Part shown: positions 15,200 through 64,000 of the stretch, piece by piece
Position numbering within the stretch: the stretch's first letter is position 1
How the letters are laid out: each line of letters begins with the position of its first letter
Assembly: GCA_964016885.1 (NCBI GenBank)
Contig: OZ024754.1
Span: forward strand, 30,318,001-30,382,000
Length of the DNA: 64,000 bases
DNA from: Eledone cirrhosa
Lineage: Eukaryota
Direction: 5' to 3'
Made by a program: the position numbers and the translations under genes
Notes under the pieces: generated by a model
Told to the model about the DNA's origin: nothing
Seen by the model: only the letters and a program-made list of their open reading frames with translations
Databases searched by the model: none

Positions 15200-15241
<42 letters not shown>

Positions 15242-15254
15242 GCTAAATATTGGG

Positions 15255-15304
15255 TCTTGTTACTCTGGAGTTTCACCTGTTTATCACAGGGTCATCAGAC
15301 AAGA
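15255..15304 (-). ncRNA. Minimal type I hammerhead ribozyme in a small foldback element
   Basis: Minus strand reads TCTTGT-CTGATGA-cCCTGT gataa ACAGGt-GAAA-CTC ca GAG-TA-ACAAGA; all three stems pair. Confidence 0.85.
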
Positions 15305-15610
15305 AACTCCAGAGTTACAAGACATACTATTCAGCCTTAATAAAATGAATATTAAAACTCTATTTTCTCTCAGCTGTCAACCACACACATACACACACAC
15401 ACACACATACATATATATATATATGAGTTACAACAGTGAATATACTGGTTACTAATTTATACTTAACTCATCCTATGGACTGAGTGCTCTTACTCTTGGA
15501 TATTTCTACCAAGCTTTTATTACAGTATACCACCACCCCACTCTCAAGAGCGTGAAATTAATAAACATTCGTTGTACTGCCTCTCTGTTTTGTTCCTGTT
15601 CAAATTTTCC

Positions 15611-15650
<40 letters not shown>

Positions 15651-15857
15651 AATAAATTATCGAGAATCGGAACTTCAGCCCACGAAATAACGAAACACAA
15701 TCTTCGAAATGTGTGGCAAAGTGCTCAATAGTTTGGATAAACCAGAGCTATAACTAACGTTTAATACCAACACACCGAGACGATGTTTAAACAATCATTC
15801 GCACAGCCAAAAATACGACCAAGAAAATTCGGGTCAACAAATAAAAATATATATATA

Positions 15858-15901
<44 letters not shown>

Positions 15902-16219
15902 ACAAGTACAACTGCTACAAGTATGGAGTTAGAGTGACTCTCTCAGTAAATGCTTAAATTCTTAAACCAACAAGTCTAGTCTGGTTCTCCCTTTAGAGAG
16001 AAATGTGGTTACTCATTCGAGTGTAGACTGTTGCTTGGAGTGAAGTATGAGAGTACACTTAAGTATAGTTTATCTGTAGAACCAGCATGAGCGTGGGTGG
16101 GGTGTCCCATAAGGAAAGGATAGGTTATATAATGTAGACCTACATAGAGATATGAAGACAGGAGGGTCATAAAAGGAGGGTCATGACTCGGTGTAATTCT
16201 GCTTTGATCTATAGCTAAG

Positions 16220-16750
16220 CAACCACAACAATTCCAACAAAAAACAATGACAAATTAATAGTTATAGGGAAGAATCTTGAATAAAAATAACAAGAACAAC
16301 AACAGTAATAACACCAACAACAACAACCACAATAATAACAACAATGACAACAATAACCATGACAACCATAACAACCACAATAATAACAACAACAACAACA
16401 ATAACCATGACAACCACAACAACCACAATAATAACAACAACCACAACAATAACCATGACAACCATAACAACAACAACAACGACAACAATAACCATGACAA
16501 CCATAACAACTACAATAATAACAACAACCACAACAATAACCATGACAACCACAACAACAACAACACCAACAACTACAAGAAAAAAAACCACAACAACCAC
16601 AACAACAACAACAACACCAACAACAACTACAAGAATAATAACCACGACACCCACAACAACAATAACAACAACAACACCAACAACAACTACAAGAATAATA
16701 ACCACGACACCCACAACAACAACAGCTCTCAAAGGAACAATAATCACAAT
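16220..16750. repeat. (AAC/AAT)n degenerate trinucleotide repeat
   Basis: Read directly. Confidence 0.95.
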
Positions 16751-16861
16751 AAACTATTCCCTAGGATTGGATGAGGAGAGTAATATATTTAAAATTCTGT
16801 CCACAGAGACAATGTGACAATTTATGTTGTTTTACAAACAACATAAATGGTAGTATTATCA

Positions 16862-17050
16862 ATGGTGGATTGGTAGTATCGGTAGAGGGTCGGACACCAT
16901 GCTTTGCAGCAAAGAGTTACGGCCCTTTACGGTCTGAGTTCAAATCCCGCCGAGGTTAATTTTGCCTTTCATCCTTACAGGGTCGATAAAATAAAGTACC
17001 AGTAATACACTGGGTAATTGCTGGCCTTGTGCCAAAAGTAGAAACAATTA
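16862..17050 (+). mobile_element. tRNA-derived SINE (second family)
   Basis: B-box GAGTTCAAATCC and tail GCTGGCCTTGTGCCAAAAGTAGAAAC. Close copy at 50759-50941. Confidence 0.8.
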
Positions 17051-17744: not shown

Positions 17745-20735
17745 TAGAAACCTTTAAAATGGGTGGTTTTATTTCATAGAACCAGAGCTGGTATTTGGTT
17801 GGATTGATAAATAATGGATTAACTAATTTTAGTAGAAACCTTTTAGAATGAGTTGTTTTGTATCATAGAACCAGAGTTGGTATTTGGTTGGATTGGTAAC
17901 TAATGGATTAACTAATTTTAGTAGAAACCTTTTAGAATGAGTTGTTTTGTATCATAGAACGAGTGCTGCTTTTGACTGGATTGGTAACTAATGGATTAAC
18001 TAATTTTAGTAGAAACCTTTTAGAATGAGTTGTTTTGTATCATAGAACCAGAGCTGGTTTTGACTGGATTGGTAACTAATGGATTAACTAATTTTAGTAG
18101 AAACCTTTTAGAATGAGTTGTTTTGTATCATAGAACTAGAGATGGTATTTGGTTGGATTGGTAACTAATGGATTAACTAATTTTAGTAGAAACCTTTTAG
18201 AATGAGTTGTTTTGTATCATAGAACCAGAGCTGGTTTTGACTGGATTGGTAACTAATGGATTAACTAATTTTAGTAGAAACCTTTTAGAATGAGTTGTTT
18301 TGTATCATAGAACTAGAGATGGTATTTGGTTGGATTGGTAACTAATGGATTAACTAATTTTAGTAGAAACCTTTTAGAATGAGTTGTTTTGTATCATAGA
18401 ACTAGAGTTGGTATTTGGTTGGATTGGTAACTAATGGATTAACTAATTTTAGTAGAAACCTTTTAGAATGAGTTGTTTTGTATCATAGAACTAGAGCTGG
18501 TATTTGGTTGGATTGGTAACTAATGGATTAACTAATTTTAGTAGAAACCTTTTAGAATGAGTTGTTTTGTATCATAGAACCAGAGCTGGTATTTGGTTGG
18601 ATTGGTAACTAATGGATTAACTAATTTTAGTAGAAACCTTTTAGAATGAGTTGTTTTGTATCATAGAACCAGAGTTGGTATTTGGTTGGATTGGTAACTA
18701 ATGGATTAACTAATTTTAGTAGAAACCTTTTAGAATGAGTTGTTTTGTATCATAGAACGAGTGCTGCTTTTGACTGGATTGGTAACTAATGGATTAACTA
18801 ATTTTAGTAGAAACCTTTTAGAATGAGTTGTTTTGTATCATAGAACTAGAGCTGGTATTTGGTTGGATTGGTAACTAATGGATTAACTAATTTTAGTAGA
18901 AACCTTTTAGAATTAGTTGTTTTGTATCATAGAACCAGAGTTGGTATTTGGTTGGATTGGTAACTAATGGATTAACTAATTTTAGTAGAAACCTTTTAGA
19001 ATTAGTTGTTTTGTATCATAGAACCAGAGTTGGTATTTGGTTGGATTGGTAACTAATGGATTAACTAATTTTAGTAGAAACCTTTTAGAATGAGTTGTTT
19101 TGTATCATAGAACTAGAGCTGGTATTTGGTTGGATTGGTAACTAATGGATTAACTAATTTTAGTAGAAACCTTTTAGAATGAGTTGTTTTGTATCATAGA
19201 ACCAGAGCTGGTTTTGACTGGATTGGTAACTAATGGATTAACTAATTTTAGTAGAAACCTTTTAGAATGAGTTGTTTTGTATCATAGAACTAGAGATGGT
19301 ATTTGGTTGGATTGGTAACTAATGGATTAACTAATTTTAGTAGAAACCTTTTAGAATGAGTTGTTTTGTATCATAGAACTAGAGATGGTATTTGGTTGGA
19401 TTGGTAACTAATGGATTAACTAATTTTAGTAGAAACCTTTTAGAATGAGTTGTTTTGTATCATAGAACCAGAGTTGGTATTTGGTTGGATTGGTAACTAA
19501 TGGATTAACTAATTTTAGTAGAAACCTTTTAGAATGAGTTGTTTTGTATCATAGAACTAGAGTTGGTATTTGGTTGGATTGGTAACTAATGGATTAACTA
19601 ATTTTAGTAGAAACCTTTTAGAATGAGTTGTTTTGTATCATAGAACCAGAGTTGGTATTTGGTTGGATTGGTAACTAATGGATTAACTAATTTTAGTAGA
19701 AACCTTTTAGAATGAGTTGTTTTGTATCATAGAACTAGAGATGGTATTTGGTTGGATTGGTAACTAATGGATTAACTAATTTTAGTAGAAACCTTTTAGA
19801 ATGAGTTGTTTTGTATCATAGAACCAGAGCTGGTATTTGGTTGGATTGGTAACTAATGGATTAACTAATTTTAGTAGAAACCTTTTAGAATGAGTTGTTT
19901 TGTATCATAGAACCAGAGTTGGTATTTGGTTGGATTGGTAACTAATGGATTAACTAATTTTAGTAGAAACCTTTTAGAATGAGTTGTTTTGTATCATAGA
20001 ACGAGTGCTGCTTTTGACTGGATTGGTAACTAATGGATTAACTAATTTTAGTAGAAACCTTTTAGAATGAGTTGTTTTGTATCATAGAACTAGAGTTGGT
20101 ATTTGGTTGGATTGGTAACTAATGGATTAACTAATTTTAGTAGAAACCTTTTAGAATGAGTTGTTTTGTATCATAGAACTAGAGATGGTATTTGGTTGGA
20201 TTGGTAACTAATGGATTAACTAATTTTAGTAGAAACCTTTTAGAATGAGTTGTTTTGTATCATAGAACCAGAGCTGGTTTTGACTGGATTGGTAACTAAT
20301 GGATTAACTAATTTTAGTAGAAACCTTTTAGAATGAGTTGTTTTGTATCATAGAACTAGAGTTGGTATTTGGTTGGATTGGTAACTAATGGATTAACTAA
20401 TTTTAGTAGAAACCTTTTAGAATGAGTTGTTTTGTATCATAGAACTAGAGATGGTATTTGGTTGGATTGGTAACTAATGGATTAACTAATTTTAGTAGAA
20501 ACCTTTTAGAATGAGTTGTTTTGTATCATAGAACTAGAGCTGGTATTTGGTTGGATTGGTAACTAATGGATTAACTAATTTTAGTAGAAACCTTTTAGAA
20601 TGAGTTGTTTTGTATCATAGAACCAGAGTTGGTATTTGGTTGGATTGGTAACTAATGGATTAACTAATTTTAGTAGAAACCTTTTAGAATGAGTTGTTTT
20701 GTATCATAGAACCAGAGTTGGTATTTGGTTGGCTG
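17745..20735. repeat. 88-89-bp tandem array, about 33 copies
   Basis: Unit AACTAATTTTAGTAGAAACCTTTTAGAATGAGTTGTTTTGTATCATAGAAC...GGATTGGTAACTAATGGATT. Confidence 0.97.
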
Positions 20736-21704: not shown

Positions 21705-23925
21705 CCAGTAGAAAAATAAAATAAAATTGACCAAGTCACACACAGTAGAAATAACAGAAAAAAGGGGGTAGAAATTGACCGGATCACACAAAGTAGGAAT
21801 AAGAGAAAAACGGGTTAGAAATTGACCAGCTCATACATAGTAAAAATAACAGAAAAAAGGGGGTAGAAATTGACCAGGTCACACATAGTAGGGATAACAG
21901 AAAAATGGGGGTAGAAATTGACCAGGTCACACAGTAGGAATAACAGAAAAATGGGGGTAGAAATTGACCAGGTCACACATAGTAGGAATAACAGAAAAAT
22001 GGGGGTAGAAATTGACCAGGTCACACATAGTAGGAATAACAGAAAAATGGGGGTAGAAATTGACCAGGTCACACAGTAGGAATAACAGAAAAACAGGGTA
22101 GAAATTGACCAGGTCACACAGTAGGAATTATGTAGAAAAACGGGGGTAGAAATTGACCAGGTCACACATAGTAGGAATAACAGAAAAATGGGGGTAGAAA
22201 TTGACCAGGTCACACATAGTAGAAATAACAGAAAAATGGGGGTAGAAATTGACCAGGTCATACATAGTAGGAATAACAGAAAAATGGGGGTAGGAATTGA
22301 CCAGCTCATACATAGTAAAACTAACAGAAAAAATGGGGTAGAAATTGACCAGGTCACACACAGTATAAATAACAGAAAAATGGGGAAGAAATTGACCAGG
22401 TCACACATAGTAGAAATAACAGAAAAATGGGGGTAGAAATTGACCAGGTCACACATAGTAGAAATAACAGAAAAATGGGGGTAGAAATTGACCAGGTCAC
22501 ACATAGTAGAAATAACAGAAAAATGGGGGTAGAAATTGACCAGGTCACACATAGTAGGAATAACAGAAAAAAGGGGGTAGAAATTGACCAGGTCACACAC
22601 AGTACAAATAACAGAAAAACAGGGTAGAAATTGACCAGGTTACACATAGTAGGAATAACAGAAAAAAGGGGGTAGAAATTGACCAGGTCACACACAGTAT
22701 AAATAACAGAAAAATGGGGGTAGAAATTGACCAGGTTACACATAGTAGGAATAACAGAAAAAAGGGGGTAGAAATTGACCAGGTCACACACAGTACAAAT
22801 AACAGAAAAACAGGGTAGAAATTGACCAGGTTACACATAGTAGGAATAACAGAAAAAAGGGGGTAGAAATTGACCAGGTCACACATAGTAGGAATAACAG
22901 AAAAATGGGGGTAGGAATTGACCAGCTCACACATAGTAGAAATAACAGAAAAAATGGGGTAGAAATTGACCAGGTCACACATAGTATAAATAACAGAAAA
23001 ATGGGGGTAGAAATTGACCAGGTTACACATAGTAGGAATAACAGAAAAATGGGGGTAGAAATTGACCAGCTCACACATAGTAGAAATAACAGAAAAATGG
23101 GGTAGAAATTGACCAGGTCACACATAGTAGGAATAACAGAAAAATGGGGGTAGAAATTGACCAGGTTACACAGTAGGAATAACAGAAAAATGGGGGTAGA
23201 AATTGACCAGGTTACACATAGTAGGAATAACAGAAAAATGGGGGTAGGAATTGACCAGCTCATACATAGTAAAACTAACAGAAAAAATGGGGTAGAAATT
23301 GACCAGGTCACACATAGTAGGAATAACAGAAAAATGGGGGTAGAAATTGACCAGGTTACACATAGTAGGAATAACAGAAAAATGGGGTAGAAATTGACCA
23401 GGTCACACATAGTAGGAATAACAGAAAAATGGGGGTAGGAATTGACCAGCTCATACATAGTAAAACTAACAGAAAAAATGGGGTAGAAATTGACCAGGTC
23501 ACACATAGTAGGAATAACAGAAAAATGGGGGTAGAAATTGACCAGGTTACACATAGTAGGAATAACAGAAAAATGGGGGTAGGAATTGACCAGGTCACAC
23601 ATAGTAGGAATAACAGAAAAATGGGGGTAGGAATTGACCAGGTTACACATAGTAGGAATAACAGAAAAATGGGGGTAGAAATTGACCAGGTTACACATAG
23701 TAGGAATAACAGAAAAATGGGGGTAGGAATTGACCAGGTCACACATAGTAGGAATAACAGAAAAATGGGGGTAGGAATTGACCAGCTCATACATAGTAAA
23801 ACTAACAGAAAAAATGGGGTAGAAATTGACCAGGTCACACATAGTAGGAATAACAGAAAAATGGGGAAGAAATTGACCAGGTTACACATAGTAGGAATTA
23901 TGTAGAAAAACGGGGTAGAAATGAG
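21705..23925. repeat. 48-bp minisatellite, about 46 copies
   Basis: Unit GAAATTGACCAGGTCACACATAGTAGGAATAACAGAAAAATGGGGGTA with frequent 1-2 nt indels. Confidence 0.97.
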
Positions 23926-25532: not shown

Positions 25533-26418
25533 CGAGGTGTGTCAGAAAAGTTCCAGGACTGATGTCACAAAAGATTTATTTCAAACCCAAACTTCACACT
25601 AAGAGTTTTCTCCTTCAAAGTAATCCCCCTGGAGTATGTAACTGTAAACTTAGCTCTCTGTAGCGATCAAATTTTTTTCTTCATAAATTTATATACATGT
25701 CCTCTGTTTCAGGTCGTCAAGTAATGAGCACAGAGCAACGAACAAACTTGTAGTTTCTGGTACGGTTGGGGAAAACTCCGTCAGAAGCACTGGGATTGCT
25801 GCAGCAAGTGTATGGAGATGAGACGATGTCACGCTCACGTGTTTTTGAGTGGTGCAAGATGACCCCAGGAGCGGAAGGCCCTCAACAACCAGGACTGAGG
25901 TCAATGTTGAGCGCGTCAGGCAGATGGTGCATAGCGATCGTCAGCTGACTGTTCGACTGATGGCAAATGAGCTGGGCATGAATCGGGACAGCGTCTGGAA
26001 GATTCTCACTGAAGATTTGGACATGCGGAAAGTCTGTACAAAGATGGTGCCAAAACTGCTGAACAATGACCAGAAGGGTCGACGCATGCAAGTGTGCCAG
26101 GACATCCTCGAGCATCTTGAAACCGAACCAGACTTGCTATGGACAATCATCACTGGTGATGAGTCATGGCTCTTCAAGTACGACCCGGAGGGGACCCGTT
26201 TTGAAGACGTGGATGACATCAAAAAGGCCATGACGACGGAACTGAGGAGGATCCCAGAAGAATCCTTCCAGGAGTGCATGCAAGCGTGGCAGAAAAGGAT
26301 GGAAAAGTGCATTAGACTCCAGGGGGATTACTTTGAAGGAGAAAACTCTTAGTGTGAAGTTTGGGTTTGAAATAAATCTTTTGTGACATCAGTCCTGGAA
26401 CTTTTCTGACACACCTCG
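25533..26418 (+). mobile_element. Internally deleted Tc1/mariner element with ~100-bp inverted ends and TA target duplication
   Basis: TA-CGAGGTGTGTCAGAAAAGTTCC ... GGAACTTTTCTGACACACCTCG-TA. Transposase remnants DDPRSGRP, WTIITGDESW, YDPE and GDYFEG are present; most of the catalytic domain is missing. Confidence 0.95.
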
Positions 26419-26883
26419 TATGTGTGTATGTCAGTTGACACTGGCCTCAATAGCCTCTGGTAAAATATACTAGACAATCACGGTTAGCTAACTGCTGAGA
26501 TAGTTGGTTGGTTGGTTAATATTCATCAGTTGCCTTCGTTAGTTAACGAGCTGCTTCAGTAATTAATACTCTAGTCATACTAGTTTTACATATTTCTATT
26601 TATTTGTTGTTTTTAACTGTTGTTTATGAACTTTTATTTTTTTGAAATTGTTGTTGTTGTTGTTGTTGTTGTAATTGTTGTGGATATAGATGTAGTTGCT
26701 GTTGTTGTTGTTGTTGTAGATGTAGATGTAGTTGTTGGTGTTGTAGTTGTAGTTGTAGATGTAGTTGTTGGTGTTGTTGTTGTTGTTGTAGATGTTGTAG
26801 TATAATTGTTCTTTAATATGAGGAACTTAAATGAGTTACTTTCCACAATTAATTGCAATCTTTACTTCTTCTTCTTCTTCTTC

Positions 26884-32561: not shown

Positions 32562-32604
32562 AATTAGTGACATGTTTCAGTATTGTTGGATTTCATCAGC
32601 AAAG
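32562..32604 (-). ncRNA. Degenerate hammerhead relic
   Basis: Minus strand CTGATGA-aatccaacaatact-GAAA-CATG-TC. Core and palindromic stem III are intact; stems I and II are eroded. Confidence 0.45.
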
Positions 32605-32620
32605 TTATAGTCTACTGTAC

Positions 32621-38039: not shown

Positions 38040-38900
38040 ATATAAGTATGTATACGTACATACATATATGTATACAGACGTACAGTAGTATGCATATATA
38101 TATATACTATATACATACATGCACATATATATATGTACGTATGGATTCACCGAACATTTATTATAATGCTCGGTGTGTTTGTAAACAAACATCCCGAATT
38201 AAGCCGTACAGTGTCTAGCAACCATCGTTGCTCATTTGTTCAACACTGACAAAGGAAAGCTGTACTAGTTTCAAGCTTATTAGCTATCGTCATAGCATAC
38301 GTACACATATATATGTGTGCATGTATGTATATATGTATATATATATATATATATGCATACTACTGTACGTCTGTATACATATATGTATGTATGTATACAT
38401 ACTTATATTTAAGTAACAGCCGTACTAAGAGTGAGAAATGAAATTTCGTTTCATTTTTTCCGTTTATCGTTTTCGGTACCCCGGTCGATTAACTCACTCG
38501 ATATGCAAATTAGGCTGCTCAGCCGTTAATATGCATAAGGAAAGTATATACTTTCAGACGTTCAACCATCTGGCAGGAAGGTATACGTTGCTGACGATAG
38601 CTAATAAGCTTGAAACTAGTACAGCGTTCCTTTGTCAGTGTTGAACAAATGAGCAACGATGGTTGCTAGACACTGTACGGGTTAATCCGGGATGTTTGTT
38701 TACAAACACACCGAGCATTATAAATGTTCGGTGAATCCATACGTACATATTTATATGTGTGCATGTATGTATATATGTATATATATATATGCATACTACT
38801 GTACGTCTGTATACATATATGTATGTACGTATACATGCTTATATTTAAGTAACAGCCGTACTAAGAGTGAGAAATGAAATTTTGTTTCATTTTTTATGTT
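38040..38900 (+). mobile_element. ~440-bp HHR-bearing retrozyme-like element: inverted truncated copy plus ~1.4 tandem units
   Basis: 38040-38292 is the reverse complement of 38592-38845. 38296-38466 repeats directly at 38738-38900. TA-rich tracts lie on both sides. Confidence 0.85.
38585..38627 (+). ncRNA. Minimal type I hammerhead ribozyme
   Basis: ACGTTG-CTGACGA-tAGCT aata AGCTt-GAAA-CTAG-TA-CAGCGT. Confidence 0.85.
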
Positions 38901-38933
<33 letters not shown>

Positions 38934-40745: not shown

Positions 40746-41117
40746 TTTTCAACTGTGAAAATTGCAAAGTTGATTGTCTGAAGATTGCGAAAGCATGAAA
40801 GTACTTGTTCAATTAACACTTAGAATTTAATATTCTATCATACTATTTCATTATAATACCATTATAAATTTTAAAGGATTGTAAATAAAACGAGTAAATC
40901 AGACAAAGTTGGAATTCCTCTTATTAATATAATCTTCTATACACAATCATACACACCCATGTATATTTATCTATCTATATATATATATACATATATATAT
41001 ACATATATAAATACATATATATACATATATATACATACATATATATACATATCTGTATATGCATACATACACACAAACACTCTCATACGCACACACACCT
41101 ATATGTGTGTGTGTCTG

Positions 41118-41248: not shown

Positions 41249-41297
<49 letters not shown>

Positions 41298-41584
41298 CAA
41301 ATAACGAAACGAAATTAAATTTCGTTTCGTTTGTAACTCACTTTTGTATGACTGACGCTTAAACAATTAAGTTAAAAATGTACATCCACATATGTATACT
41401 GAAATACTAGTATGCATATGAATACACACACGTGTACATATGTAGATGTACCGAGTTTTCACTGGTCACTTTACTGTGAGTGTCCAGCTATTCCGTATGT
41501 AGACACACAGACAAACCGGTTCTTAGAGTCATACTGGTTTTTGAGGAAACACCTTTCCTCTATTCTCCAGAAAGCCAGACAAGG

Positions 41585-41629
41585 AATATTGGACTAGTTT
41601 CGATGTTGTTACATCTCATCAGCAATATT
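41585..41629 (-). ncRNA. Type I hammerhead ribozyme; same motif starts at 42050, 42515, 42980, 43445, 43910
   Basis: Reverse complement of AATATTG-CTGATGA-GATGT aaca ACATC-GAAA-CTAG-TC-CAATATT. Confidence 0.93.
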
Positions 41630-44180
41630 TACCTATCTTCCGGCTTCTCTAGAGAATCGTGAAAGCACATATCGTTATATGCTTTTTCTATGAAAATTAG
41701 TAGTGGGCAGACCAATTTGCATAGAGCGTGAGTACGTACCGGTTCAACGGAGACGATAAAAACAAATAACGAAACGAAATTAAATTTCGTTTCGTTTGTA
41801 ACTCACTTTTGTATGACTGACGCTTAAACAATTAAGTTAAAAATGTACATCCACATATGTATACTGAAATACTAGTATGCATATGAATACACACACGTGT
41901 ACATATGTAGATGTACCGAGTTTTCACTGGTCACTTTACTGTGAGTGTCCAGCTATTCCGTATGTAGACACACAGACAAACCGGTTCTTAGAGTCATACT
42001 GGTTTTTGAGGAAACACCTTTCCTCTATTCTCCAGAAAGCCAGACAAGGAATATTGGACTAGTTTCGATGTTGTTACATCTCATCAGCAATATTTACCTA
42101 TCTTCCGGCTTCTCTAGAGAATCGTGAAAGCACATATCGTTATATGCTTTTTCTATGAAAATTAGTAGTGGGCAGACCAATTTGCATAGAGCGTGAGTAC
42201 GTACCGGTTCAACGGAGACGATAAAAACAAATAACGAAACGAAATTAAATTTCGTTTCGTTTGTAACTCACTTTTGTATGACTGACGCTTAAACAATTAA
42301 GTTAAAAATGTACATCCACATATGTATACTGAAATACTAGTATGCATATGAATACACACACGTGTACATATGTAGATGTACCGAGTTTTCACTGGTCACT
42401 TTACTGTGAGTGTCCAGCTATTCCGTATGTAGACACACAGACAAACCGGTTCTTAGAGTCATACTGGTTTTTGAGGAAACACCTTTCCTCTATTCTCCAG
42501 AAAGCCAGACAAGGAATATTGGACTAGTTTCGATGTTGTTACATCTCATCAGCAATATTTACCTATCTTCCGGCTTCTCTAGAGAATCGTGAAAGCACAT
42601 ATCGTTATATGCTTTTTCTATGAAAATTAGTAGTGGGCAGACCAATTTGCATAGAGCGTGAGTACGTACCGGTTCAACGGAGACGATAAAAACAAATAAC
42701 GAAACGAAATTAAATTTCGTTTCGTTTGTAACTCACTTTTGTATGACTGACGCTTAAACAATTAAGTTAAAAATGTACATCCACATATGTATACTGAAAT
42801 ACTAGTATGCATATGAATACACACACGTGTACATATGTAGATGTACCGAGTTTTCACTGGTCACTTTACTGTGAGTGTCCAGCTATTCCGTATGTAGACA
42901 CACAGACAAACCGGTTCTTAGAGTCATACTGGTTTTTGAGGAAACACCTTTCCTCTATTCTCCAGAAAGCCAGACAAGGAATATTGGACTAGTTTCGATG
43001 TTGTTACATCTCATCAGCAATATTTACCTATCTTCCGGCTTCTCTAGAGAATCGTGAAAGCACATATCGTTATATGCTTTTTCTATGAAAATTAGTAGTG
43101 GGCAGACCAATTTGCATAGAGCGTGAGTACGTACCGGTTCAACGGAGACGATAAAAACAAATAACGAAACGAAATTAAATTTCGTTTCGTTTGTAACTCA
43201 CTTTTGTATGACTGACGCTTAAACAATTAAGTTAAAAATGTACATCCACATATGTATACTGAAATACTAGTATGCATATGAATACACACACGTGTACATA
43301 TGTAGATGTACCGAGTTTTCACTGGTCACTTTACTGTGAGTGTCCAGCTATTCCGTATGTAGACACACAGACAAACCGGTTCTTAGAGTCATACTGGTTT
43401 TTGAGGAAACACCTTTCCTCTATTCTCCAGAAAGCCAGACAAGGAATATTGGACTAGTTTCGATGTTGTTACATCTCATCAGCAATATTTACCTATCTTC
43501 CGGCTTCTCTAGAGAATCGTGAAAGCACATATCGTTATATGCTTTTTCTATGAAAATTAGTAGTGGGCAGACCAATTTGCATAGAGCGTGAGTACGTACC
43601 GGTTCAACGGAGACGATAAAAACAAATAACGAAACGAAATTAAATTTCGTTTCGTTTGTAACTCACTTTTGTATGACTGACGCTTAAACAATTAAGTTAA
43701 AAATGTACATCCACATATGTATACTGAAATACTAGTATGCATATGAATACACACACGTGTACATATGTAGATGTACCGAGTTTTCACTGGTCACTTTACT
43801 GTGAGTGTCCAGCTATTCCGTATGTAGACACACAGACAAACCGGTTCTTAGAGTCATACTGGTTTTTGAGGAAACACCTTTCCTCTATTCTCCAGAAAGC
43901 CAGACAAGGAATATTGGACTAGTTTCGATGTTGTTACATCTCATCAGCAATATTTACCTATCTTCCGGCTTCTCTAGAGAATCGTGAAAGCACGTGAAAG
44001 CAAGTGAGTTACAAACGAAACGAAATTTAATTTCGTTTCGTTATTTGTTTTTATCGTCTCCGTTGAACCGGTACGTACTCACGCTCTATGCAAATTGGTC
44101 TGCCCACTACTAATTTTCATAGAAAAAGCATATAACGATATGTGCTTTCACGATTCTCTAGAGAAGCCGGAAGATAGGTA

Positions 44181-44225
44181 AATATTGCTGATGAGATGTA
44201 ACAACATCGAAACTAGTCCAATATT
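44181..44225 (+). ncRNA. Type I hammerhead ribozyme; same motif starts at 44646 and 45111
   Basis: 7-bp stem I, CUGAUGA, 5-bp stem II, GAAA, palindromic stem III ACUAGU and a GUC triplet (predicted cleavage after 44218). Confidence 0.93.
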
Positions 44226-45514
44226 CCTTGTCTGGCTTTCTGGAGAATAGAGGAAAGGTGTTTCCTCAAAAACCAGTATGACTCTAAGAACCGGTTTGTC
44301 TGTGTGTCTACATACGGAATAGCTGGACACTCACAGTAAAGTGACCAGTGAAAACTCGGTACATCTACATATGTACACGTGTGTGTATTCATATGCATAC
44401 TAGTATTTCAGTATACATATGTGGATGTACATTTTTAACTTAATTGTTTAAGCGTCAGTCATACAAAAGTGAGTTACAAACGAAACGAAATTTAATTTCG
44501 TTTCGTTATTTGTTTTTATCGTCTCCGTTGAACCGGTACGTACTCACGCTCTATGCAAATTGGTCTGCCCACTACTAATTTTCATAGAAAAAGCATATAA
44601 CGATATGTGCTTTCACGATTCTCTAGAGAAGCCGGAAGATAGGTAAATATTGCTGATGAGATGTAACAACATCGAAACTAGTCCAATATTCCTTGTCTGG
44701 CTTTCTGGAGAATAGAGGAAAGGTGTTTCCTCAAAAACCAGTATGACTCTAAGAACCGGTTTGTCTGTGTGTCTACATACGGAATAGCTGGACACTCACA
44801 GTAAAGTGACCAGTGAAAACTCGGTACATCTACATATGTACACGTGTGTGTATTCATATGCATACTAGTATTTCAGTATACATATGTGGATGTACATTTT
44901 TAACTTAATTGTTTAAGCGTCAGTCATACAAAAGTGAGTTACAAACGAAACGAAATTTAATTTCGTTTCGTTATTTGTTTTTATCGTCTCCGTTGAACCG
45001 GTACGTACTCACGCTCTATGCAAATTGGTCTGCCCACTACTAATTTTCATAGAAAAAGCATATAACGATATGTGCTTTCACGATTCTCTAGAGAAGCCGG
45101 AAGATAGGTAAATATTGCTGATGAGATGTAACAACATCGAAACTAGTCCAATATTCCTTGTCTGGCTTTCTGGAGAATAGAGGAAAGGTGTTTCCTCAAA
45201 AACCAGTATGACTCTAAGAACCGGTTTGTCTGTGTGTCTACATACGGAATAGCTGGACACTCACAGTAAAGTGACCAGTGAAAACTCGGTACATCTACAT
45301 ATGTACACGTGTGTGTATTCATATGCATACTAGTATTTCAGTATACATATGTGGATGTACATTTTTAACTTAATTGTTTATATATATATATATATATATC
45401 AAAGGATACATAATCTCTGTAAAATAAAGCATAAAATTCTACCTTGCCTTATTTCTTTTTTCAGTGAGTCATTCACATAGATTATATTCAACAACACCAA
45501 TACAAGCACCAGTG

Positions 45515-49063: not shown

Positions 49064-49209
49064 ATATATATAGACCCGGATGTGTTAAATGGAATCATCT
49101 GATTTCAAAATTCATTTTGATACACATATATGCATGTATATATATGTGTATATGTATACGTGAATGTGTACATATGTATATGTGTTTGTATATATATATA
49201 TATATGTGT

Positions 49210-49260
49210 ATGTGTGTGGGTGTATGTGTATTTGTATAAGTATATGTGTCTGTATGTATT

Positions 49261-49293
<33 letters not shown>

Positions 49294-49416
49294 GTGTGTG
49301 GGTATGTGTATTTGTATAAGTATATGTGTCTGTATGTATTTATATATATATATATGTATATATATATATGTGTGTGGGTATGTGTATTTGTATAAGTATA
49401 TGTGTCTGTATGTATT

Positions 49417-49449
<33 letters not shown>

Positions 49450-49496
49450 GTGTGTGGGTATGTGTATTTGTATAAGTATATGTGTCTGTATGTATT

Positions 49497-49527
<31 letters not shown>

Positions 49528-49574
49528 GTGTGTGGGTATGTGTATTTGTATAAGTATATGTGTCTGTATGTATT

Positions 49575-49605
<31 letters not shown>

Positions 49606-49652
49606 GTGTGTGGGTATGTGTATTTGTATAAGTATATGTGTCTGTATGTATT

Positions 49653-49683
<31 letters not shown>

Positions 49684-49726
49684 GTGTGTGGGTATGTGTA
49701 TTTGTATAAGTATATGTGTCTGTATG

Positions 49727-49761
<35 letters not shown>

Positions 49762-49820
49762 GTGTGTGGGTATGTGTATTTGTATAAGTATATGTGTCTG
49801 TATGTATTTATATATATGTG
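49210..49820. repeat. ~68-bp minisatellite built from TA/TG microsatellite
   Basis: Recurring GTGTGGGTATGTGTATTTGTATAAGTATATGTGTCTGTATGTATT, about 9 copies. Confidence 0.9.
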
Positions 49821-51017: not shown

Positions 51018-51777
51018 TATAATAAGTTGACAGCACTAGCATGGGTTTCACTTCTAGTACCAGTTGCATCTCAGTGTACTCAATAAGTAATGTTATGTAA
51101 ACTCCCAGAGTAGATACATCATTATTTACATGTAAATGGGTACCTTCAAAACTATACCCGTACTCAAGTTTCGGCCACTCTTAATACAGCAATAGAGTGC
51201 ACAGCATCCACTGTCTGCATTTATTATGCACAATCGGCGCATATGGCTTCATAAGCAGGTTTCGCCTAATCAATAACTAATTGATCAACAGAATTCAATT
51301 CCAGTCCATGTTGGCTATGACAGTGAATATGACGGTCAACACAGTAAAACGTTAGCAACTGAAATCCCTATGCGTCATCACAATGTCGTTAACCGATTGG
51401 CTACTGGTTCAGAAATTTACATGACAGTAGGATACGAAATTCAAATAGTTCCACTCCTGCCATAAGCTCTCAGCCAATGTAGCTCAAACACAAATTAAGA
51501 AGTGAGTGAAAAATTGGTTATTAGAAAAAAATCAATCTCCAATCGCTGTACAATAGAATGGTAGCATTCGGCCCCAGTCTTCAAAATTGTTCAACTTACT
51601 CTTATTGTTAATCTCCTAGTTGGGAGAAAATAATAATAAGTTGATGGTACTAGCATGGGTTTCACTGCCAATACCGGTTGCATCTCAGCGTACTCAATAG
51701 GTAATGTTATGTAAACTCCCAGAGTAGATACATGGTTATTCGCTTCAATACAACACATGTAAATGGATACCTTCAAT

Positions 51778-51780
<3 letters not shown>
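51018..51780. mobile_element. TA-flanked partial-tandem element, period ~615 bp
   Basis: 51018-51148 recurs at 51632-51776. Confidence 0.65.
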
Positions 51781-51796
<16 letters not shown>

Positions 51797-51819
<23 letters not shown>

Positions 51820-52007
51820 CAAAGGAAATGTGGTAAGGAACCAGGTGGACCATAACGCACCAAAGTACTCAATACTTAGGGTAGTAGAGTGGGTAATAGG
51901 AACCAGTAAGACCCCGACGGCTGAGCTCAGGCCGTTTCGACGGCTAATTCTAGTCCAGAATTAGCCGTCGAAACGGCCTGAGCTCAGCCGTCGGGGTCTT
52001 ACTGGTT

Positions 52008-52012
<5 letters not shown>
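51797..52012. mobile_element. Foldback element: perfect 56-bp-arm palindrome carrying the 3' half of a hammerhead
   Basis: Arms 51896-51951 and 51957-52012; GAAA-CGGC ctgagctca GCCG-TC-GGGGTC; (TA)n flanks. Confidence 0.8.
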
Positions 52013-53733: not shown

Positions 53734-53772
<39 letters not shown>

Positions 53773-54029
53773 GTAGGAGGTGAGTTTTATTGTAGTACAA
53801 TAAAGCAATGCAGATATCGGATAAGAAGCACTCTACAGTTTGTGGGACTGGAGTATGCATAATATAAGATCAAAAGATGGTTAAAGGAGTTCCATATATT
53901 TTATTATGCGCATTTCAAAAACAAACATCATCAAACAATAATATTTGTGTTTTCATCAGATAAAACAGGAGAACATGATATGAAGGCTAAAAAACACTTG
54001 TTGATAGTGCAGTTTTAAATCAACATATG

Positions 54030-54503
54030 TTATCTATAGATAACACTAGATCACTCATTAATAATCTCTCTAATTGCAACTGCCGCATTAAAAATAAATG
54101 TCCTCTCAACAACCATTGCCTCGATAAAAACTTAATTTATGAATGTAAAATTATAACTAGCACCAATTCCTTCACCTATTTTGGCTCCACTTCCACCTCT
54201 TTTAAAGCTCGTCTCTATAATCATCATTCATCTTTCAAATACAAACTTAAAAGAACTAACACTGCTCTCTCAGAACTCATATGGTCCTTAAAAGACAAAA
54301 ACATTAAATATAACATCTTTTGGAAAAAGATTTCTTCTGCATCCTCATACTTGAACAGCTCTCTATCTAAAATCTGTAATCTCTGCCTAAATGAAAAATT
54401 TACCATTATCTCTAACCTAGAATCCATAATAAATAGACGCTCAGATTTGTTTTCTATCTGCCTGCATAAATTCCATCGAACTTTTCACAAAGTATACAGT
54501 TAA
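54030..54503 (+). pseudogene. C-terminal GIY-YIG endonuclease of a Penelope-like element (RT lost by truncation)
   Basis: CNCR..CPL...C linker, LIY-x-YFG, FKAR...H, CNLCLNEK, INRRSDL...CLH. The ATG at 54027 comes from the inverted arm. Confidence 0.88.
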
Positions 54504-55482
54504 TATTCAATTCTTTATCAATTTAGAATCTTTTCTCAAAGGCACATATACATACACCTCTTTAAAATATACCCATCTACCTTACTTTAAAGGGCATTAT
54601 ACACTCTATAATACTCGTTTACTCATTACCCTCATTCTATCTTCTCGTAAAACAATAACATTTGTTTTTGACATTTTGAATATTCATCCGCAATCATTAT
54701 TATTTTTTCTCTCTATCATAAATCTTTTTAATCTGAATTTCATCCTTAATTTATTATTATTTTTTTCTCCCCATCAACGAACTCATTATTAATACATATG
54801 AATTCAATATACAAACTTTAACTTCACATTATTTTTCTCAAATCCTTCTACACATAAACCTTAACATTTTTCTCTTTGCTAATTTTGAAATTGCCACTAT
54901 ACATACATTTTTTCTTTTGACGTTAGAATATTCACCCACAATTATTATTTTTTCTCTCTATCTTCATACATAATTTCCCTTCGTTAATTTTCAAATTCCT
55001 TTAATTTATACATTATCTTCCAACGGTTCCCAACCTCTCTATATTAAAACATTATATCTTTTTCTCAGTTATAAAAACTATCTCTTTCTCTCTATCACCC
55101 ATCTCTCCCTTTCCACCTTCACTCTCATCTCCTCCCCCTTTTTTTTTCATCCTTTCCACCCCACCCCCCCTCCCTAAATAAAATATTTTTTCCTCGCACA
55201 TATCCTCCCTTCGTTAATTTTCAAAATTTTTAATTTATACAGTATCTTCCAACGGTTTTCAACCCCTCTATATAAAATATATCTCCTCTCAGTTATAAAA
55301 ACTATCTCTTTCTCTCTATCACCCATCTCTCCCTCTCATCTCCTTCCCTTTTCATCCTTCCCCCCCCTCTCTAAATAAAATATTTTTCCCAATATCACAC
55401 ATCAATCTAAAACCACTTTCCATATGTTGATTTAAAACTGCACTATCAACAAGTGTTTTTTAGCCTTCATATCATGTTCTCC

Positions 55483-55553
55483 TGTTTTATCTGATGAAAA
55501 CACAAATATTATTGTTTGATGATGTTTGTTTTTGAAATGCGCATAATAAAATA
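55483..55553 (+). ncRNA. Type I hammerhead in the Penelope-like pseudo-LTR (mirror copy 53897-53967, minus strand)
   Basis: TGTTTTAT-CTGATGA-long stem II-GAAA-TGCGCA-TA-ATAAAATA; palindromic stem III ATGCGCAT. Confidence 0.85.
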
Positions 55554-55583
55554 TATGGAACTCCTTTAACCATCTTTTGATCT

Positions 55584-55622
<39 letters not shown>

Positions 55623-55769: not shown

Positions 55770-55843
<74 letters not shown>

Positions 55844-56800: not shown

Positions 56801-57373
56801 AGATACACACATTCAGGAATATTTACCACGGAGAAATACCACTGCTAGTTGGTAGAGGGCGTTGTATGATATATATATATATATGTGTGCGTGTGAGTAT
56901 GTATATGTGTGTGTTGTGTGTGTATATGTGAACGTATATGTGTGTGTGTATGTGTATGTGAATGTATATATGTGTGTGTATGTGAACATATATGTGTGCG
57001 CGTGTGAACAGATATATTGTATGTGCTTGTATATGTGAATGTATATACGTGTGTGTGTGTGTGTGTGCATGTGTATATGTGAATGTATGATATATATATG
57101 TGCGTGTGTCTGTGTGTGTGTATGTGTGAACATATATATAAGTGTGTGTGCGTGTGTATATGTGACTATATATATATATGTGTGTGTGCGTAAGTGTATA
57201 TGTGTGTGTGAGTGAGTGTGTGATGATGATGATAATGATGATGATGGAGATGATGATAATGAAGATATATACATCCAAAATTGAGCTTTTCATATATATG
57301 TATATATATATATAGTAATGGTTGCATTCTTTAAGGGTATGTCAATATTTATTTATAAAACTGATCTATATTA

Positions 57374-57438
57374 TATTTTATCTGATGAAAGCACACCATA
57401 ATTTAACTTGGTGTCCTTGAAATATGTATAATGAAATA
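57374..57438 (+). ncRNA. Type I hammerhead in a solo pseudo-LTR-like fragment (57315-57480)
   Basis: TATTTTAT-CTGATGA-AAGcACACCA..TGGTGTcCTT-GAAA-TATGTA-TA-ATGAAATA; resembles the 55483 HHR and its context. Confidence 0.75.
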
Positions 57439-57771
57439 AATATGGTTTTTTATATATAGTTTCCATTTGTTAATATCGTATATATATATATATATATATA
57501 GTTGTTATATAGTAAGGTGCAATATTGGTTGTGTAAAAAGGTCCAATAACTTTATGTTAGCAATATTAAGTTCTCAACGCTTTTGTATATCTCCAATTCC
57601 ATTCGAGGTAACAGCTAGATGATTTAAAACGGAGTATAAGCATCAAAATGAAAATCCGAAGTATCAAAATGAAAATCAATTGATCGTGGCTTCACAATCG
57701 ATCTATCTCTTATTGAAACATGTGTCCTGATTAAATGATTGGAATTTTACCTTGACTTCGGATTTTCATTT

Positions 57772-57800
<29 letters not shown>

Positions 57801-57807
<7 letters not shown>

Positions 57808-58456
57808 ATACTTGGGGAGGGTCATATTTGTGTAATATTGCCAGAATTAATAACAGAACACACTCACTGTTTGGTTGGTTTTCGCTTCTCGCTTCTGTGT
57901 CTTTTATATCGGTAATCTAACTTACTCGGTCCTCAATGTTGCCATTGACTGACCGACGGTCAAAAATAATACAGATACAATATAGACACAAACACATATA
58001 TATAGTTTATCATAAATCTTTCGTTGGACATTTGCAACATCGTCAGTGGTGCTATATTTTCCTCCTGTTGTATTGTATGTCTACGCTATTTTTATTCTTA
58101 TTTTTATATAGACAGACTGAATAAAAATGGCCTAGACATACAATACAACAGGAGGAAAATATAGCACCACTGACGATGTTGCAGATGTGCAACGAAAGAT
58201 TTATGATAAACTATATATATGTGTTTGTGTCTATATTGTATCTGTATTATTTTTGACCGCCGGTCAGTCAGTGGCAACATTGAGGACCGAGTAAGTTAGA
58301 TTACCGATATAAAAGACACAGAAGCGAGAAGCGAAAACCAACCAAACAGTGAGTGTGTTCTGTTATTAATTCTGGCAATATTACACAAATATGACCCTCC
58401 CCAAGTATAACAATATTTGTTTCGACACACGATTTCATACAAAAAACCTCACAAAA

Positions 58457-58460
<4 letters not shown>
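57801..58460. mobile_element. Foldback element with ~290-bp arms and a hammerhead-like core, in (TA)n
   Basis: 57801-58097 is the reverse complement of 58119-58415. CTGACGA-tGTTGCA gatg TGCAAC-GAAA at 58170-58197. Another copy lies at 63700-64000. Confidence 0.85.
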
Positions 58461-58531
<71 letters not shown>

Positions 58532-59613: not shown

Positions 59614-59709
59614 ATGTATGTATGTATTTATGTATGTATACATGGAAGTATGTTTGTGTGTATGTGTGTGTGCATGTATGTACGTATGTGTGTATGTATG
59701 AATGTATGT

Positions 59710-60715: not shown

Positions 60716-61260
60716 TCAAGGTCACGCTTGGATGAACAACTTTCACACAATATTAGTTTAGCAGAGCAGAATAATTTGAGGCCACGAAAGACAGAAAATT
60801 GTCAGAGAAAATCAAATGTCTATGTACTGCCACATCTACCCTCACCTCACCACACCTCTACACCTCTTCTACACCTCACAACACCTCTTGACCTCAGCAC
60901 ACCACACCACACCGCACCGCCTCACCACATCCCTTCTTCTGCACAATTGAAAACAAAGTAAATAAAGCATCAGATACAGACATGGCTGTGTTGTTAAGGA
61001 GTTCACCTTAGAGGCAACCAAATGGTTTCTGGTCCAGTCCCACTGTGTGGCACCTTAGGTTTCTGTCTTCTAATATAGCCCCAAGTTGACCAATGTCTCA
61101 AGAATGAAATTTGATAGACGGAAAACTGTGGAAGCCTGTTATATGCATATATATGTGTGTATGTGTGTGTACATATATATATACTCACACGCGCACACAT
61201 ATGTATGTATATATATATACATATATATGTTTGTGTGTGTTTATATATATATATATGTAT

Positions 61261-61292
<32 letters not shown>

Positions 61293-61317
61293 GTATGTAT
61301 ATATATGTATGTATTAT

Positions 61318-61680
61318 CGCTTTCTCTTAATTTCGAGTATATTTTTTTGGACCGGCCACCTTCCTGGTGGCAAGGTTGTAAAAGAAAAGAAATTGTCATC
61401 CCTTGAATCGCAAGAATGTTTGGCAAATTTTGAAGGTACCAGCTATCGCAGCCATTTGTAGACTTTTTGTAGACTATTTGTCCGCAAATCCAAGTTCAGG
61501 CATACTTTGGTCCAAGCGGGTTGGTATATAACCCGTAGCTCCAATAATGATGGGTATGAAGCTAAAGGTGTATCTTGGATACTGGATTTGTAAACTCCTC
61601 ATCAATGGTCCGTAGATGTCCTCCTTCTCTTGTATTTTTCTGACAACGTTTACATCAAGTGGGCAGCTGATCCCCACAAC
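61318..61680 (-). mobile_element. 3' fragment of an RLE-type non-LTR retrotransposon (R4/Dong or NeSL-like)
   Basis: [20 protein letters not shown]...[10 protein letters not shown] resembles the C-terminal restriction-like endonuclease region. Embedded in TA/TATG repeats. Confidence 0.7.
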
Positions 61681-61875
61681 ATGTATGTATGTATGTATGT
61701 ATGTATGTATGTATGTATGTATGTATATATATATATGTATGTATGTATATGTATGTATGTATGTATATATATATGTATGTGTATATATATATATATAAGT
61801 ATATCTATGTATGTATATATATATATATATGTATGTATATATATATGTATGTATATATATATGTATATATGTATG

Positions 61876-61944
<69 letters not shown>

Positions 61945-61948
<4 letters not shown>

Positions 61949-63617
61949 CATCATCATCATCATCATCAACGTTTAACGTCCGTGTTCCACGCTTGCATGG
62001 GTTTGGACGGGGGTAGTCCCACTTGAGGCAAGCTCGCATAGGACTGTCTGGCAGGTTTTCTACAGTTGGATGCCCTTCCTAACACCAACCACATTTACAG
62101 TGTGGGTCTGGGAGGTTTTTACCGTGTTGCCTACACGGCCACATTACAGCGTGGACTGTGTGTTTTTTTGTCGTGACACCTACACGATCTCATTTGTTTC
62201 GGCCTGGATGGCACGGCACCAACATAACTTTACATAGAACGGGGTGGTGTGGATGGGGTGGGGGTGGTGGCGGGACGGGGTGTATTTTGTTAGAGATGCC
62301 TACTGGCAAGGCGGGTCTTCTCTGTTACTGAGTACCGCCAAAGGTCTCGGTCCAGTGACATTGTCTTGGAGAGGTGTAAGTGTGTGAGGTCGGAGTTTAT
62401 CAGCTCATCCCATGTTTTTCTAGGTCTGCCTATTCCGTGGCTACCGTCTATCTTTATTGCCCTGCACTTTGTTATACAGCTATCGACTTTCATGCGCATC
62501 ACGTGTCCATACCAACGCAGCCTTCTCTCGAGTAAACAACATCTGATCCCTCTTATCTCTAATTTTTTCCTTAGTTCGTTTATGCTTTGCCGTTCACGTA
62601 TATTACTGTTACACATCCAGCGGAGCATGCAAGCTTCGTTCCTCTCTAGTCTGCGTATATCCTCTGCACACAATGCCCAGGTCTCACTGCCATGCAACAT
62701 TGCTGTTCGTATGCAGGCATCGTACAACCTGCCTTTCTTTTTTAGGGAGAACCCTTTAGCAGCTAATAGTGGTATAAGCTCTCTGAACTTTTTCCAACCA
62801 GTTCTGACTCTAGCTACAGTACTTTCAGAGCACCCTCCCCCACTGCTGATTTTATCGCCCAGGTAACGGAAGCTGTCCACTATTTCTATAGAACCCTCTG
62901 CGCAATTGAAAGAGCTAGTATTTTGTGGGCACTTGCTGCTACTTATTGCACCAGAACACCGGCCACATGTAAAATCTATGTTCTTAGTTAGCTTACCTGT
63001 GATCCCACTACATCTTTTATGCACCCATACTTTGCATTTAGGACATAAAATGGAGTTTCTACCTACGCCTTTCCTACACACCGAGCACGACCATTTCCCA
63101 GAAGGGACCGCCGCCTTGTTTTCTTTCCTACAAACTAGAACTTCGGTCTTAGCCAGGTTAATTTTAAGTCCTTTTGACTCTAGGCCGTGCTTCCATGTTT
63201 GGAATTTCTTCTCTAGCTCGGCCATTGATTCCGCTATGAGTGTCAGGTCGTCTGCGTATAGGAGTTCCCATGGGCAGCCTGTCTTGAACTCCTCTGTTAT
63301 AGCCTGAAGGGCAATAATAAATAGTAGGGGGCTGAGAACAGAGCCCTGATGGACGCCAACTTTTACGCTAAACTCTTCACTATATTCGTTGTTAATTCTA
63401 ACCTTGCTGACTGTTTCTTTATACATGGCTTGTATAGCTCTCACAAGCCATTCGTCAACGCCTAGTTTTCTAAGAGCCCACCAGATAATGGAGCGGGGGA
63501 CTCTGTCGAAGGCTTTCTCCAGGTCGACAAAAGCTAAGTAGAGGGGTCTACCTTTAGCTAGGTACTTCTCCTGTAGTTGTCGTACTATGAAAAGGGCGTC
63601 TGTGGTGCTTTTGCCTG
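61945..63617 (-). mobile_element. 5'-truncated RTE subfamily 1 copy
   Basis: ORF 62290-63444 closely matches the C-terminal half of 28359-30656 and retains YADD; (GAT)n tail. Confidence 0.95.
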
Positions 63618-63699
63618 ATATATATATATATATATATATGTATGTATATATATATGTATGTATATATATATATGTATATATATATATATGTATGTATAT

Positions 63700-64000
63700 A
63701 TATTGTTATATTTGGAGAGGGTCATATTTGCGTAATATTGCCAGAATTAATAACAGAACACACTCACTGTTTGGTTGGTTTTCGCTTCTCGCTGTCTTTT
63801 ATATATATATATCTGCGATCTAACTTACTCGGTCCTCAATGTTGCCATTGACTGACCGGCGGTCAAAAATAATACAGATACAATATAGACAAACACATAT
63901 ATATGTAGTTTACATAATTTACATAAATCTTTCGTTGCACATCTGCAACATCGTCAGTGGTGTTATATTCATTGTTCCTCCTGTTGTGTTGTATGTCTAC
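63700..64000 (-). mobile_element. Second copy of the 57801 hammerhead-like foldback family, cut by window end
   Basis: Matches 57801-58083; core TTTCGTTGCACATCTGCAACATCGTCAG at ~63930-63957. Confidence 0.85.

Follow-up and report, generated by a model that had tools for sequence, protein, structure and literature searches.

Foldback elements that carry hammerhead ribozymes and end in runs of TA recur through a 64,000-nt stretch of the genome of Eledone cirrhosa (contig OZ024754.1, positions 30318001-30382000; genome 3.0 Gb), here called the window. They include coding Penelope-like elements (PLEs) and head-to-head arrays of short non-coding units resembling retrozymes, and both kinds carry the same insertion signature: two fixed 3' ends, one with a terminal tail and one without it, each fused to (TA)n, and one end of each type in nearly every foldback. 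The elements were very probably written by PLE machinery, and the best explanation of the whole, which we consider likely, is a Penelope-type enzyme that primes from both strands of its target, retrozymes included. The elements are real and belong to known kinds; their mechanistic signature is unusually clean and testable. The window is rich in microsatellites and in fragments of long interspersed nuclear elements (LINEs).

This reading is drawn from the arrangement of ends. Each of seven families (H54k, P58k, F15k, F52k, F57k, R465 and R38k; these labels, and F41k below, are our own) has a tail-less 3' end and another 59-93 bases beyond it, each joined directly to a TA run: 32/32 ends in R465, 56/57 in H54k, 45/48 in P58k, 18/19 in F57k, 49/57 in R38k, 44/53 in F15k and 26/37 in F52k (with false anchors within the P58k open reading frame, or ORF). 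For the first four families together this makes 151 of 156 ends, compared with 8.6% of positions across the window under that criterion. The two ends are then paired: 109 of 113 resolved foldbacks join one tailed to one tail-less arm (R465 11/11, H54k 23/23, P58k 10/11, R38k 16/16, F57k 11/12, F15k 20/22, F52k 18/18), and the retrozyme arrays follow the same rule as the coding PLEs. As the F15k and F52k queries included tail sequence, the cleaner figure is 71/73, from the five families with end-neutral queries (binomial P = 3e-19 against a half). The H54k pairs were fetched on inverted orientation, not on end type. The foldback list began as 133 divergent pairs found by script; 113 were kept, and 20 were dropped for ends off the locus, mid-tail or unclassed ends, false anchors and one R38k miscall. 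The fetched loci, about 1 Mb, form a sample biased to TA-rich places and not usable as a genome-wide estimate.

The flanks are (TA)n, with few clear target duplications, of 11-16 bases and variable. A first-pass annotation, made from the letters of the window alone, had described most of the elements as bounded by (TA)n. As direct fusion the association lies far above background; a relic at 32562 has no TA boundary and is no foldback. Loose proximity discriminates poorly, 76/90 hammerheads lying within 400 nt of TA against 147/261 other core heptamers in these TA-rich loci. The TA-rich flanks beside young insertions (L075:7550-7950; window 49143-49817) sometimes form higher-order repeats of an interrupted TA unit, as if the target had been copied repeatedly.

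The elements of the window are these:
15237..15386, F15k foldback: left arm (-) with a full hammerhead core at 15298; right arm (+) with half a hammerhead and the tail.
32562..32606 (-), decayed hammerhead relic with poor stems.
38042..38902, R38k retrozyme foldback: tail-less end left, tail end right; core 38591(+).
40762..40976 (+), F41k single arm: core 40778; 5' strand of stem I deleted in this copy.
41291..43993 (-), left arm of the R465 array: 5.81 units, six hammerheads; tail end (unit position 465) on (TA)n.
44002..45380 (+), right arm of the R465 array: 2.97 units, three hammerheads; tail-less end (unit position about 392-396) on (TA)n.
51819..52010, F52k foldback: junction within the stem II loop; 3' half of a hammerhead only; tail on the left arm.
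51861..51894 (-), tail hairpin, F52k copy.
53771..55590, H54k foldback, a 5'-truncated PLE of Hydra type by its motifs: cores 53959(-) and 55491(+); short tail-bearing left arm (-), long tail-less right arm (+).
53824..53858 (-), tail hairpin, H54k copy.
54024..54503 (+), fragment of the C-terminal GIY-YIG endonuclease of H54k (Pfam GIY-YIG E 0.004, below the cut-off).
57315..57478 (+), F57k single arm: core 57382; tail-less end on (TA)n.
57803..58459, P58k foldback, 3' end of a second coding PLE: minimal cores at 58046(-) and 58170(+); the right arm bears the tail.
63703..64000 (-), single arm of P58k with the tail-less end; at its 5' end it overruns the window by a few dozen bases.

A descriptor for type I hammerheads (core, stem II of at least four pairs, stem III, stem I of at least five pairs) finds 14 intact cores at five of these elements: 15298(-), 38591(+), nine in 41622-45118, 53959(-)/55491(+) and 57382(+). 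Block-wise dinucleotide shuffles of the window (n=200) gave a mean of 0.04 and a maximum of one. Rfam matches only the nine array copies (HH9, 38.9 bits, E 2.5e-6), under the gathering score of 52; its microRNA matches in the window, also under gathering scores, were discarded as microsatellite and hairpin noise. The first-pass annotation had listed ten hammerhead sites, mostly as foldbacks with an inverted shorter arm. The intact cores account for part of that list, and the other sites hold hammerheads that are halved, weak-stemmed, decayed or hit by a deletion; six of the ten are foldbacks, 32562, 40778, 57374 and 63930 being single arms. The four stem III palindromes that it named are all present. 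Such palindromes are a known feature of minimal PLE hammerheads, which likewise have a short stem I and many families per genome, and nothing essential differs from what the relevant sections of Cervera and de la Pena 2014 (PMC4209133) describe.

The incomplete sites differ in kind. At 58170, 58046 and 63957 the core and stem II are present and stem I is weak, in all copies of the family; at 58170 and 63930 an extra base precedes stem II, as the same sections report for minimal PLE hammerheads (PMC4209133). At 51957 only the 3' half of a hammerhead remains; three other F52k copies show the 5' half, which has a variant core. This core, together with a stem II whose loop is long, characterises the F52k parent; a search for a parent in which the standard core immediately precedes the hairpin gave 0 matches. 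In the full F52k hammerhead (L109, L131, L197) core position 8 is A; in one copy core position 3 is U, which would restore the 3-8 pair. At 40778 stem I was lost in the window copy by a small deletion and is kept in three other copies among the fetched loci (82 candidates, 40 scored). The relic at 32562 is old, with two weak homologues covering the motif (18/18 candidates scored). Over the fetched loci a slightly looser descriptor gives 91 distinct hammerhead sequences in 22 clusters.

Rather than forming non-autonomous families of their own, most of the small elements are probably 3' ends left by truncation of longer PLEs. This is shown for 58170, which belongs to P58k; the copies of 51957 and 57374, which reach several hundred bases further upstream, suggest it for those two. 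Only R465 and R38k are clearly families of non-coding units (465 bp and about 430 bp).

H54k has a tandem period of 3893 bases and an 800-aa protein, P58k a period of 4077 bases and a frame of >1000 aa; both have reverse transcriptase (RT) and GIY-YIG motifs, and both show tandem copies (pseudo-long terminal repeats, pLTRs), an inverted 5'-truncated copy and a tail at one end. The H54k hammerhead passes the type I descriptor; that of P58k has the core and stem II, with a weak stem I. Atlas neighbours of the two proteins carry GIY-YIG or RVT_1; a Pfam scan of both full proteins gave no matches, and a PDB search with P58k nothing significant. H54k is young and intact, the product of a very recent burst: 149 of the 150 endonuclease matches scored, among 61,129 candidates, are identical, and 24 sit in 821-codon open frames. 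By the motif diagnostics in the pertinent sections of Craig et al. 2021 (PMC8557442), H54k can be assigned to the Hydra clade: it has DKT, a CxCx5C linker, and CxxC with CxH, and lacks CCHH; the RWK motif reads RWT in H54k and RWK in the consensus of 18 homologues. A provisional label, 'Neptune', was dropped for Hydra once these diagnostics were compared. P58k, barely alignable with H54k, shares with Neptune/Nematis PLEs an RT, a Cx4CxxC linker and a CCHH-like endonuclease, a likeness of motifs. Its ORF (L163:2427-5693) has a long asparagine-rich stretch near the N-terminus, which recalls inserts described in Adineta Penelope ORFs. Three further coding PLE families lie in the flanks of fetched loci.

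R465, at 41.3-45.4 kb, is a head-to-head array of its 465-bp unit; R38k, at 38 kb, is a relative. Each tandem unit of either holds a type I hammerhead, and the two have in common a tail hairpin of their own, the end point, the hammerhead position and an octamer-like word. With a preceding block, this word stands just after the tail end (window ~44088-44095 in R465, ~38505-38512 in R38k). It may be an internal small nuclear RNA (snRNA)-type promoter, and may be comparable with newt satellite 2, cited in part of PMC2220036 as having a promoter of that type. A genome search listed 299 matches to R465, the best 150 of which are all ~100% identical. The 21 loci studied (20 array loci fetched from that list, and the window) comprise 14 foldbacks, five single arms, one array ending at a gap and one joined to another PLE; arms measure 0.09-18 units, and the units are identical. 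The monomer is strongly structured (folding z -9.8). One stem II pair is altered on both sides in sequencing runs X1, X5 and X6, and two runs have the unit as a lone contig 495-496 bases long, as either tandem DNA or a circle would give; the runs listed for R465 included no RNA runs. Neither retrozyme resembles the pLTRs of five coding families within the ~1 Mb. At L039:6140-6141 (G000:C613) an R465 array is joined head to head, with no spacer, to a truncated coding PLE, a P58k relative at 63% protein identity, within which the short contig ends; this chimeric junction is the only hint at a partner enzyme.

The shared signature can be accounted for by the following scheme. A Penelope-type RT-endonuclease would bind the tail region of an RNA and nick a (TA)n tract on both strands, with reverse transcription primed at each of the two nicks on the same RNA, or on the same source transcript; one complementary DNA (cDNA) would start at the far side of the tail and the other at the near side. 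Each cDNA would grow independently and stop at random; a few shared or inserted bases would then link the pair head to head, so that one arm has the tail and the other lacks it. Failure of one side would leave a single arm. A non-coding retrozyme RNA would bring its own tail and be copied likewise. Priming from both sides of one cut accounts for the head-to-head geometry, and one start site per side for the pairing rule. The closest biochemical parallel is PAc, a Poseidon element of Anolis carolinensis (Frangieh et al. 2024, PMC11167929), which cuts and extends both strands of AT-rich DNA from two internal start sites that bound the tail, with ends off the hammerhead cut. It is a predicted dimer, and a dimeric enzyme in our scheme would follow that published model of another PLE; its hammerhead is dispensable in vitro, unprocessed RNA being the main substrate. 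PAc differs in belonging to another clade, and the paper neither links the two sites to inverted insertions nor treats retrozymes. Double priming in one event is likely; hammerhead activity and the role of the tail hairpin are inferred. The first-pass annotation had proposed one Penelope-type, TA-targeting mechanism. In so far as coding PLEs and retrozyme arrays carry the same signature this stands, as one kind of mechanism and not one enzyme, given two barely alignable PLE proteins and three classes of tail.

The arms themselves bear on whether both were primed. Among 23 H54k foldbacks the tail arm is the longer in 8, the shorter in 11 and equal in 4; among 12 R465 foldbacks it is longer in 7 and shorter in 5. 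Since either arm may be the longer, neither is a simple copy of the other, and the inverted shorter arm that the annotation took as a rule is not one. The arms of one foldback do share a source: in R465 they have the same haplotype at 13/13 loci, with four haplotypes in use (~1e-6 if drawn independently), and in H54k the partner is strictly the nearest arm at 13/15 loci (over 900 bases, a median of 3 differences between partners against a mean of 26 between loci). Inner junctions of H54k have 0-8 shared bases or inserts of 1-20; those of F15k, variable in position among copies, and of F52k fall in hammerhead stems. One could suppose, still with PLE machinery, that the mirror arm arises by self-priming, a single cDNA or antisense template snapping back on itself. 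This was proposed for Adineta Penelope from palindromes at inverted junctions (sections of PMC3846280), and would explain the shared haplotypes, the four near-symmetric foldbacks among the 23 of H54k and the junctions in F15k and F52k stems. A copied arm, however, cannot exceed its template or gain a tail that the template lacks, and the tail arm is the shorter in 11/23 H54k and 5/12 R465 foldbacks; self-priming hardly yields a short tailed arm beside a long tail-less one, which makes it a strained and rather improbable source.

Two further explanations do without PLE insertion altogether. The foldbacks might be DNA-transposon MITEs (miniature transposable elements with inverted repeats) or Foldback elements that target TA repeats, with incidental hammerheads; TA-targeting Mutator-like elements exist (PMC4486113), and with a query that contained the loop one F52k junction recurs in most of 20 fetched copies. 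With a loop-free query, however, the window's junction appears in 0/9 readable F52k copies. Moreover, the ends are unlike, only one bearing a tail; arm lengths are free, from tens of bases to 8 kb, and not fixed as in MITEs; and coding copies encode RT and GIY-YIG. This explanation is refuted for H54k, P58k, R465 and R38k and is very improbable overall; a fixed-junction sublineage of F52k may have been amplified as a unit. A fixed F52k geometry and a loop flip-flop were themselves dropped as ideas, as the loop-free query gave variable junctions. The inverted arrays might instead be artefacts of assembly or chimeric reads, for the units are 100% identical and some arrays lie on short contigs with noisy units; but artefacts would not put the tail on exactly one arm, and contigs of an independent short-read run (X1) show 12 different head-to-head joints, with loose TA ends at the tail end. 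The foldbacks are thus not peculiar to this assembly, and an artefact is the least probable explanation of all. Junctions of mixed family are rare (4/133 head-to-head junctions, a BLAST-based count) and may be co-insertions or deletions between neighbours. P58k and F52k arms meet at two independent head-to-head junctions (L159:1826, L167:5210).

For retrozymes there remains the question of the template. Under double priming it would probably be a hammerhead-processed monomer circle, so that each arm arrives as a ready-made tandem array; we lean slightly towards a circle. A circular-RNA cycle has been proposed for retrozymes (sections of PMC7229834 and PMC7761336). Rolling reverse transcription of a circle fits the multi-unit arms, the uniform arrays and the ends, of which none lie at the hammerhead cut (0/34 R465 5' ends, and no 3' ends either). 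A clustering of R465 5' ends in the hammerhead (7/34, 3.6 expected, P 0.06) was not established. The alternative keeps double priming and replaces the circle by a long uncleaved linear transcript of an array, or by monomers expanded in place by unequal crossover. It would suit the dispensable hammerhead and unprocessed substrate of PAc; 8/9 Xenopus retrozyme dimers stay uncleaved, and a preprint (10.64898/2026.07.22.740005), in the sections cited here, favours local amplification; and in one R38k array variants alternate with a two-unit period. Against it, 0/21 R465 arrays are mosaic at three diagnostic sites, a variant seen at no other locus fills all 21 units of both arms at L026, and outer ends are fixed in phase while inner ends scatter. 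On balance linear templates or expansion seem unlikely, though far from negligible.

The tails form three unrelated classes, and MAFFT gave no alignment of whole tails. Those of H54k, F57k, F15k and F52k begin alike, with a base stem of four pairs, a bulge on the 3' side and a short upper stem. A search pattern in which only the base stem was fixed gave 17 clusters with 66 distinct instances close to TA ends; 45/66 have a three-pair upper stem, compared with 11% of shuffled middles; the upper stem also occurs in 7/17 instances elsewhere, several being the same tails. In 13 representatives, hand-picked with some that lack the upper stem left out, each of the three upper pairs shows changes on both sides (12 cells, compared with 4.5 in shuffles; 0/500); the four base pairs, having been the search pattern, are uninformative on covariation. 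A second Hydra-like coding family carries the hairpin, a third has G-C in place of the outer A-U, and the tails of R465, R38k and P58k lack it. Our guess is that it might be a protein-binding signal. An element between TA runs at window 51021-51779 contains a 140-base segment twice, in diverged copies, and in either copy the hairpin recurs with a long loop (minus strand); the element has one homologue in the fetched loci. A more ambitious, tentative reading, which we think somewhat more likely to fail than to hold, joins these threads: one complex per insertion with two set priming sites on one RNA; retrozymes as circular-RNA parasites written as rolling-circle concatemers in both directions; and the tail hairpin, in at least ten families, as a Hydra-type recognition code. 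If true, it would explain head-to-head foldbacks and the one-sided tail together, and the hairpin code could assign passengers to their mobiliser.

Several points weigh against double priming by PLE enzymes on circular templates. Like ends occur in 4/113 foldbacks, and 20/133 candidate pairs were unclassable; the loci were top-scoring young copies, ~1 Mb out of a 3-Gb genome. In P58k the own arm is strictly nearest at 0/8 loci, and the identity of arms elsewhere could come from gene conversion between inverted arms. Target duplications are readable in 24/80 cases, a weak excess over mismatched pairings (mean 13, maximum 20). The retrozyme tail lacks the Hydra-type hairpin and is unlike the P58k tail, so that no enzyme is tied to the retrozymes. 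Uniform arrays could stem from a uniform source array or from local expansion. Finally, the start site of PAc is equal between strands in vitro (PMC11167929); the pairing rule is thus not yet reproduced biochemically.

Much of this picture is already described for PLEs: palindromic stem III hammerheads, inverted truncated copies, a one-sided tail and a TA bias. PLEs in general have tandem and inverted 5'-truncated copies, often with a tail at one end only, and Hydra-clade PLEs, like H54k, have a C-terminal GIY-YIG, DKT, the CxCx5C linker, CxxC and CxH around the endonuclease E and N, a hammerhead near the 3' end and (TA)n targets (sections of PMC8557442). H54k differs from those described there in its unit (3.9 kb, mostly <3 kb) and tail (~90 nt, as opposed to 30-40); the same sections treat the tail as optional and contain neither a pairing count nor a shared tail hairpin. 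Animal non-LTR retrozymes (Cervera and de la Pena 2020, PMC7229834; PMC7761336; Li et al. 2026, 10.64898/2026.07.22.740005; each in part) are likewise non-coding tandem units of a few hundred bases with one type I hammerhead each and highly structured RNA, with PLEs proposed as mobilisers. R465 and R38k are likened to them by sequence. The cited parts of those texts mention no head-to-head arrays, TA targeting, tail or fixed ends, whereas R465 and R38k carry the PLE end signature. According to sections of the review (PMC7761336) no motif points to the partner of retrozymes; their dependence on PLEs was proposed, in sections of Li et al. 2026, from co-occurrence and pLTR similarity. The count behind the pairing rule and its link to two start sites, inverted TA-targeted retrozyme arrays, and the shared tail hairpin were not found in the literature searched, though older subscription papers or supplements may hold part of each. 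The papers cited name two questions as open: the way in which PLEs produce their tandem and inverted insertions, and the identity of the enzyme that mobilises animal retrozymes. In this genome an intact PLE and a retrozyme, both nearly invariant, are present with many fresh insertions. From the pairing rule follows a sharp prediction that an existing in vitro assay can address, and retrozyme arrays would record in the genome the PLE-type integration of an RNA that is non-coding and possibly circular. TA-flanked hairpins of a sort that would probably be classed as MITEs or simple repeats can arise by retrotransposition.

Also in the window, a mariner-like element and several LINE pieces lie at 25534-26419, 27307-30656, 38961-40755 and 62290-63618; the LINE pieces carry endonuclease, RT and PHD-like domains, and one copy is nearly full length. 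Long minisatellites with periods of 37, 89, 48 and 39 bases occupy 1-10386, 17745-20732, 21724-23922 and 45518-48425; the 37-base repeat has a variant of the core-like heptamer, the rest of a hammerhead being absent. Short elements are stacked between TA runs at 15425-15612, 15649-15846 and 57501-57774: the first is a 3' piece of families that have a hammerhead upstream in other copies, and the third forms a small foldback that may contain half a hammerhead.

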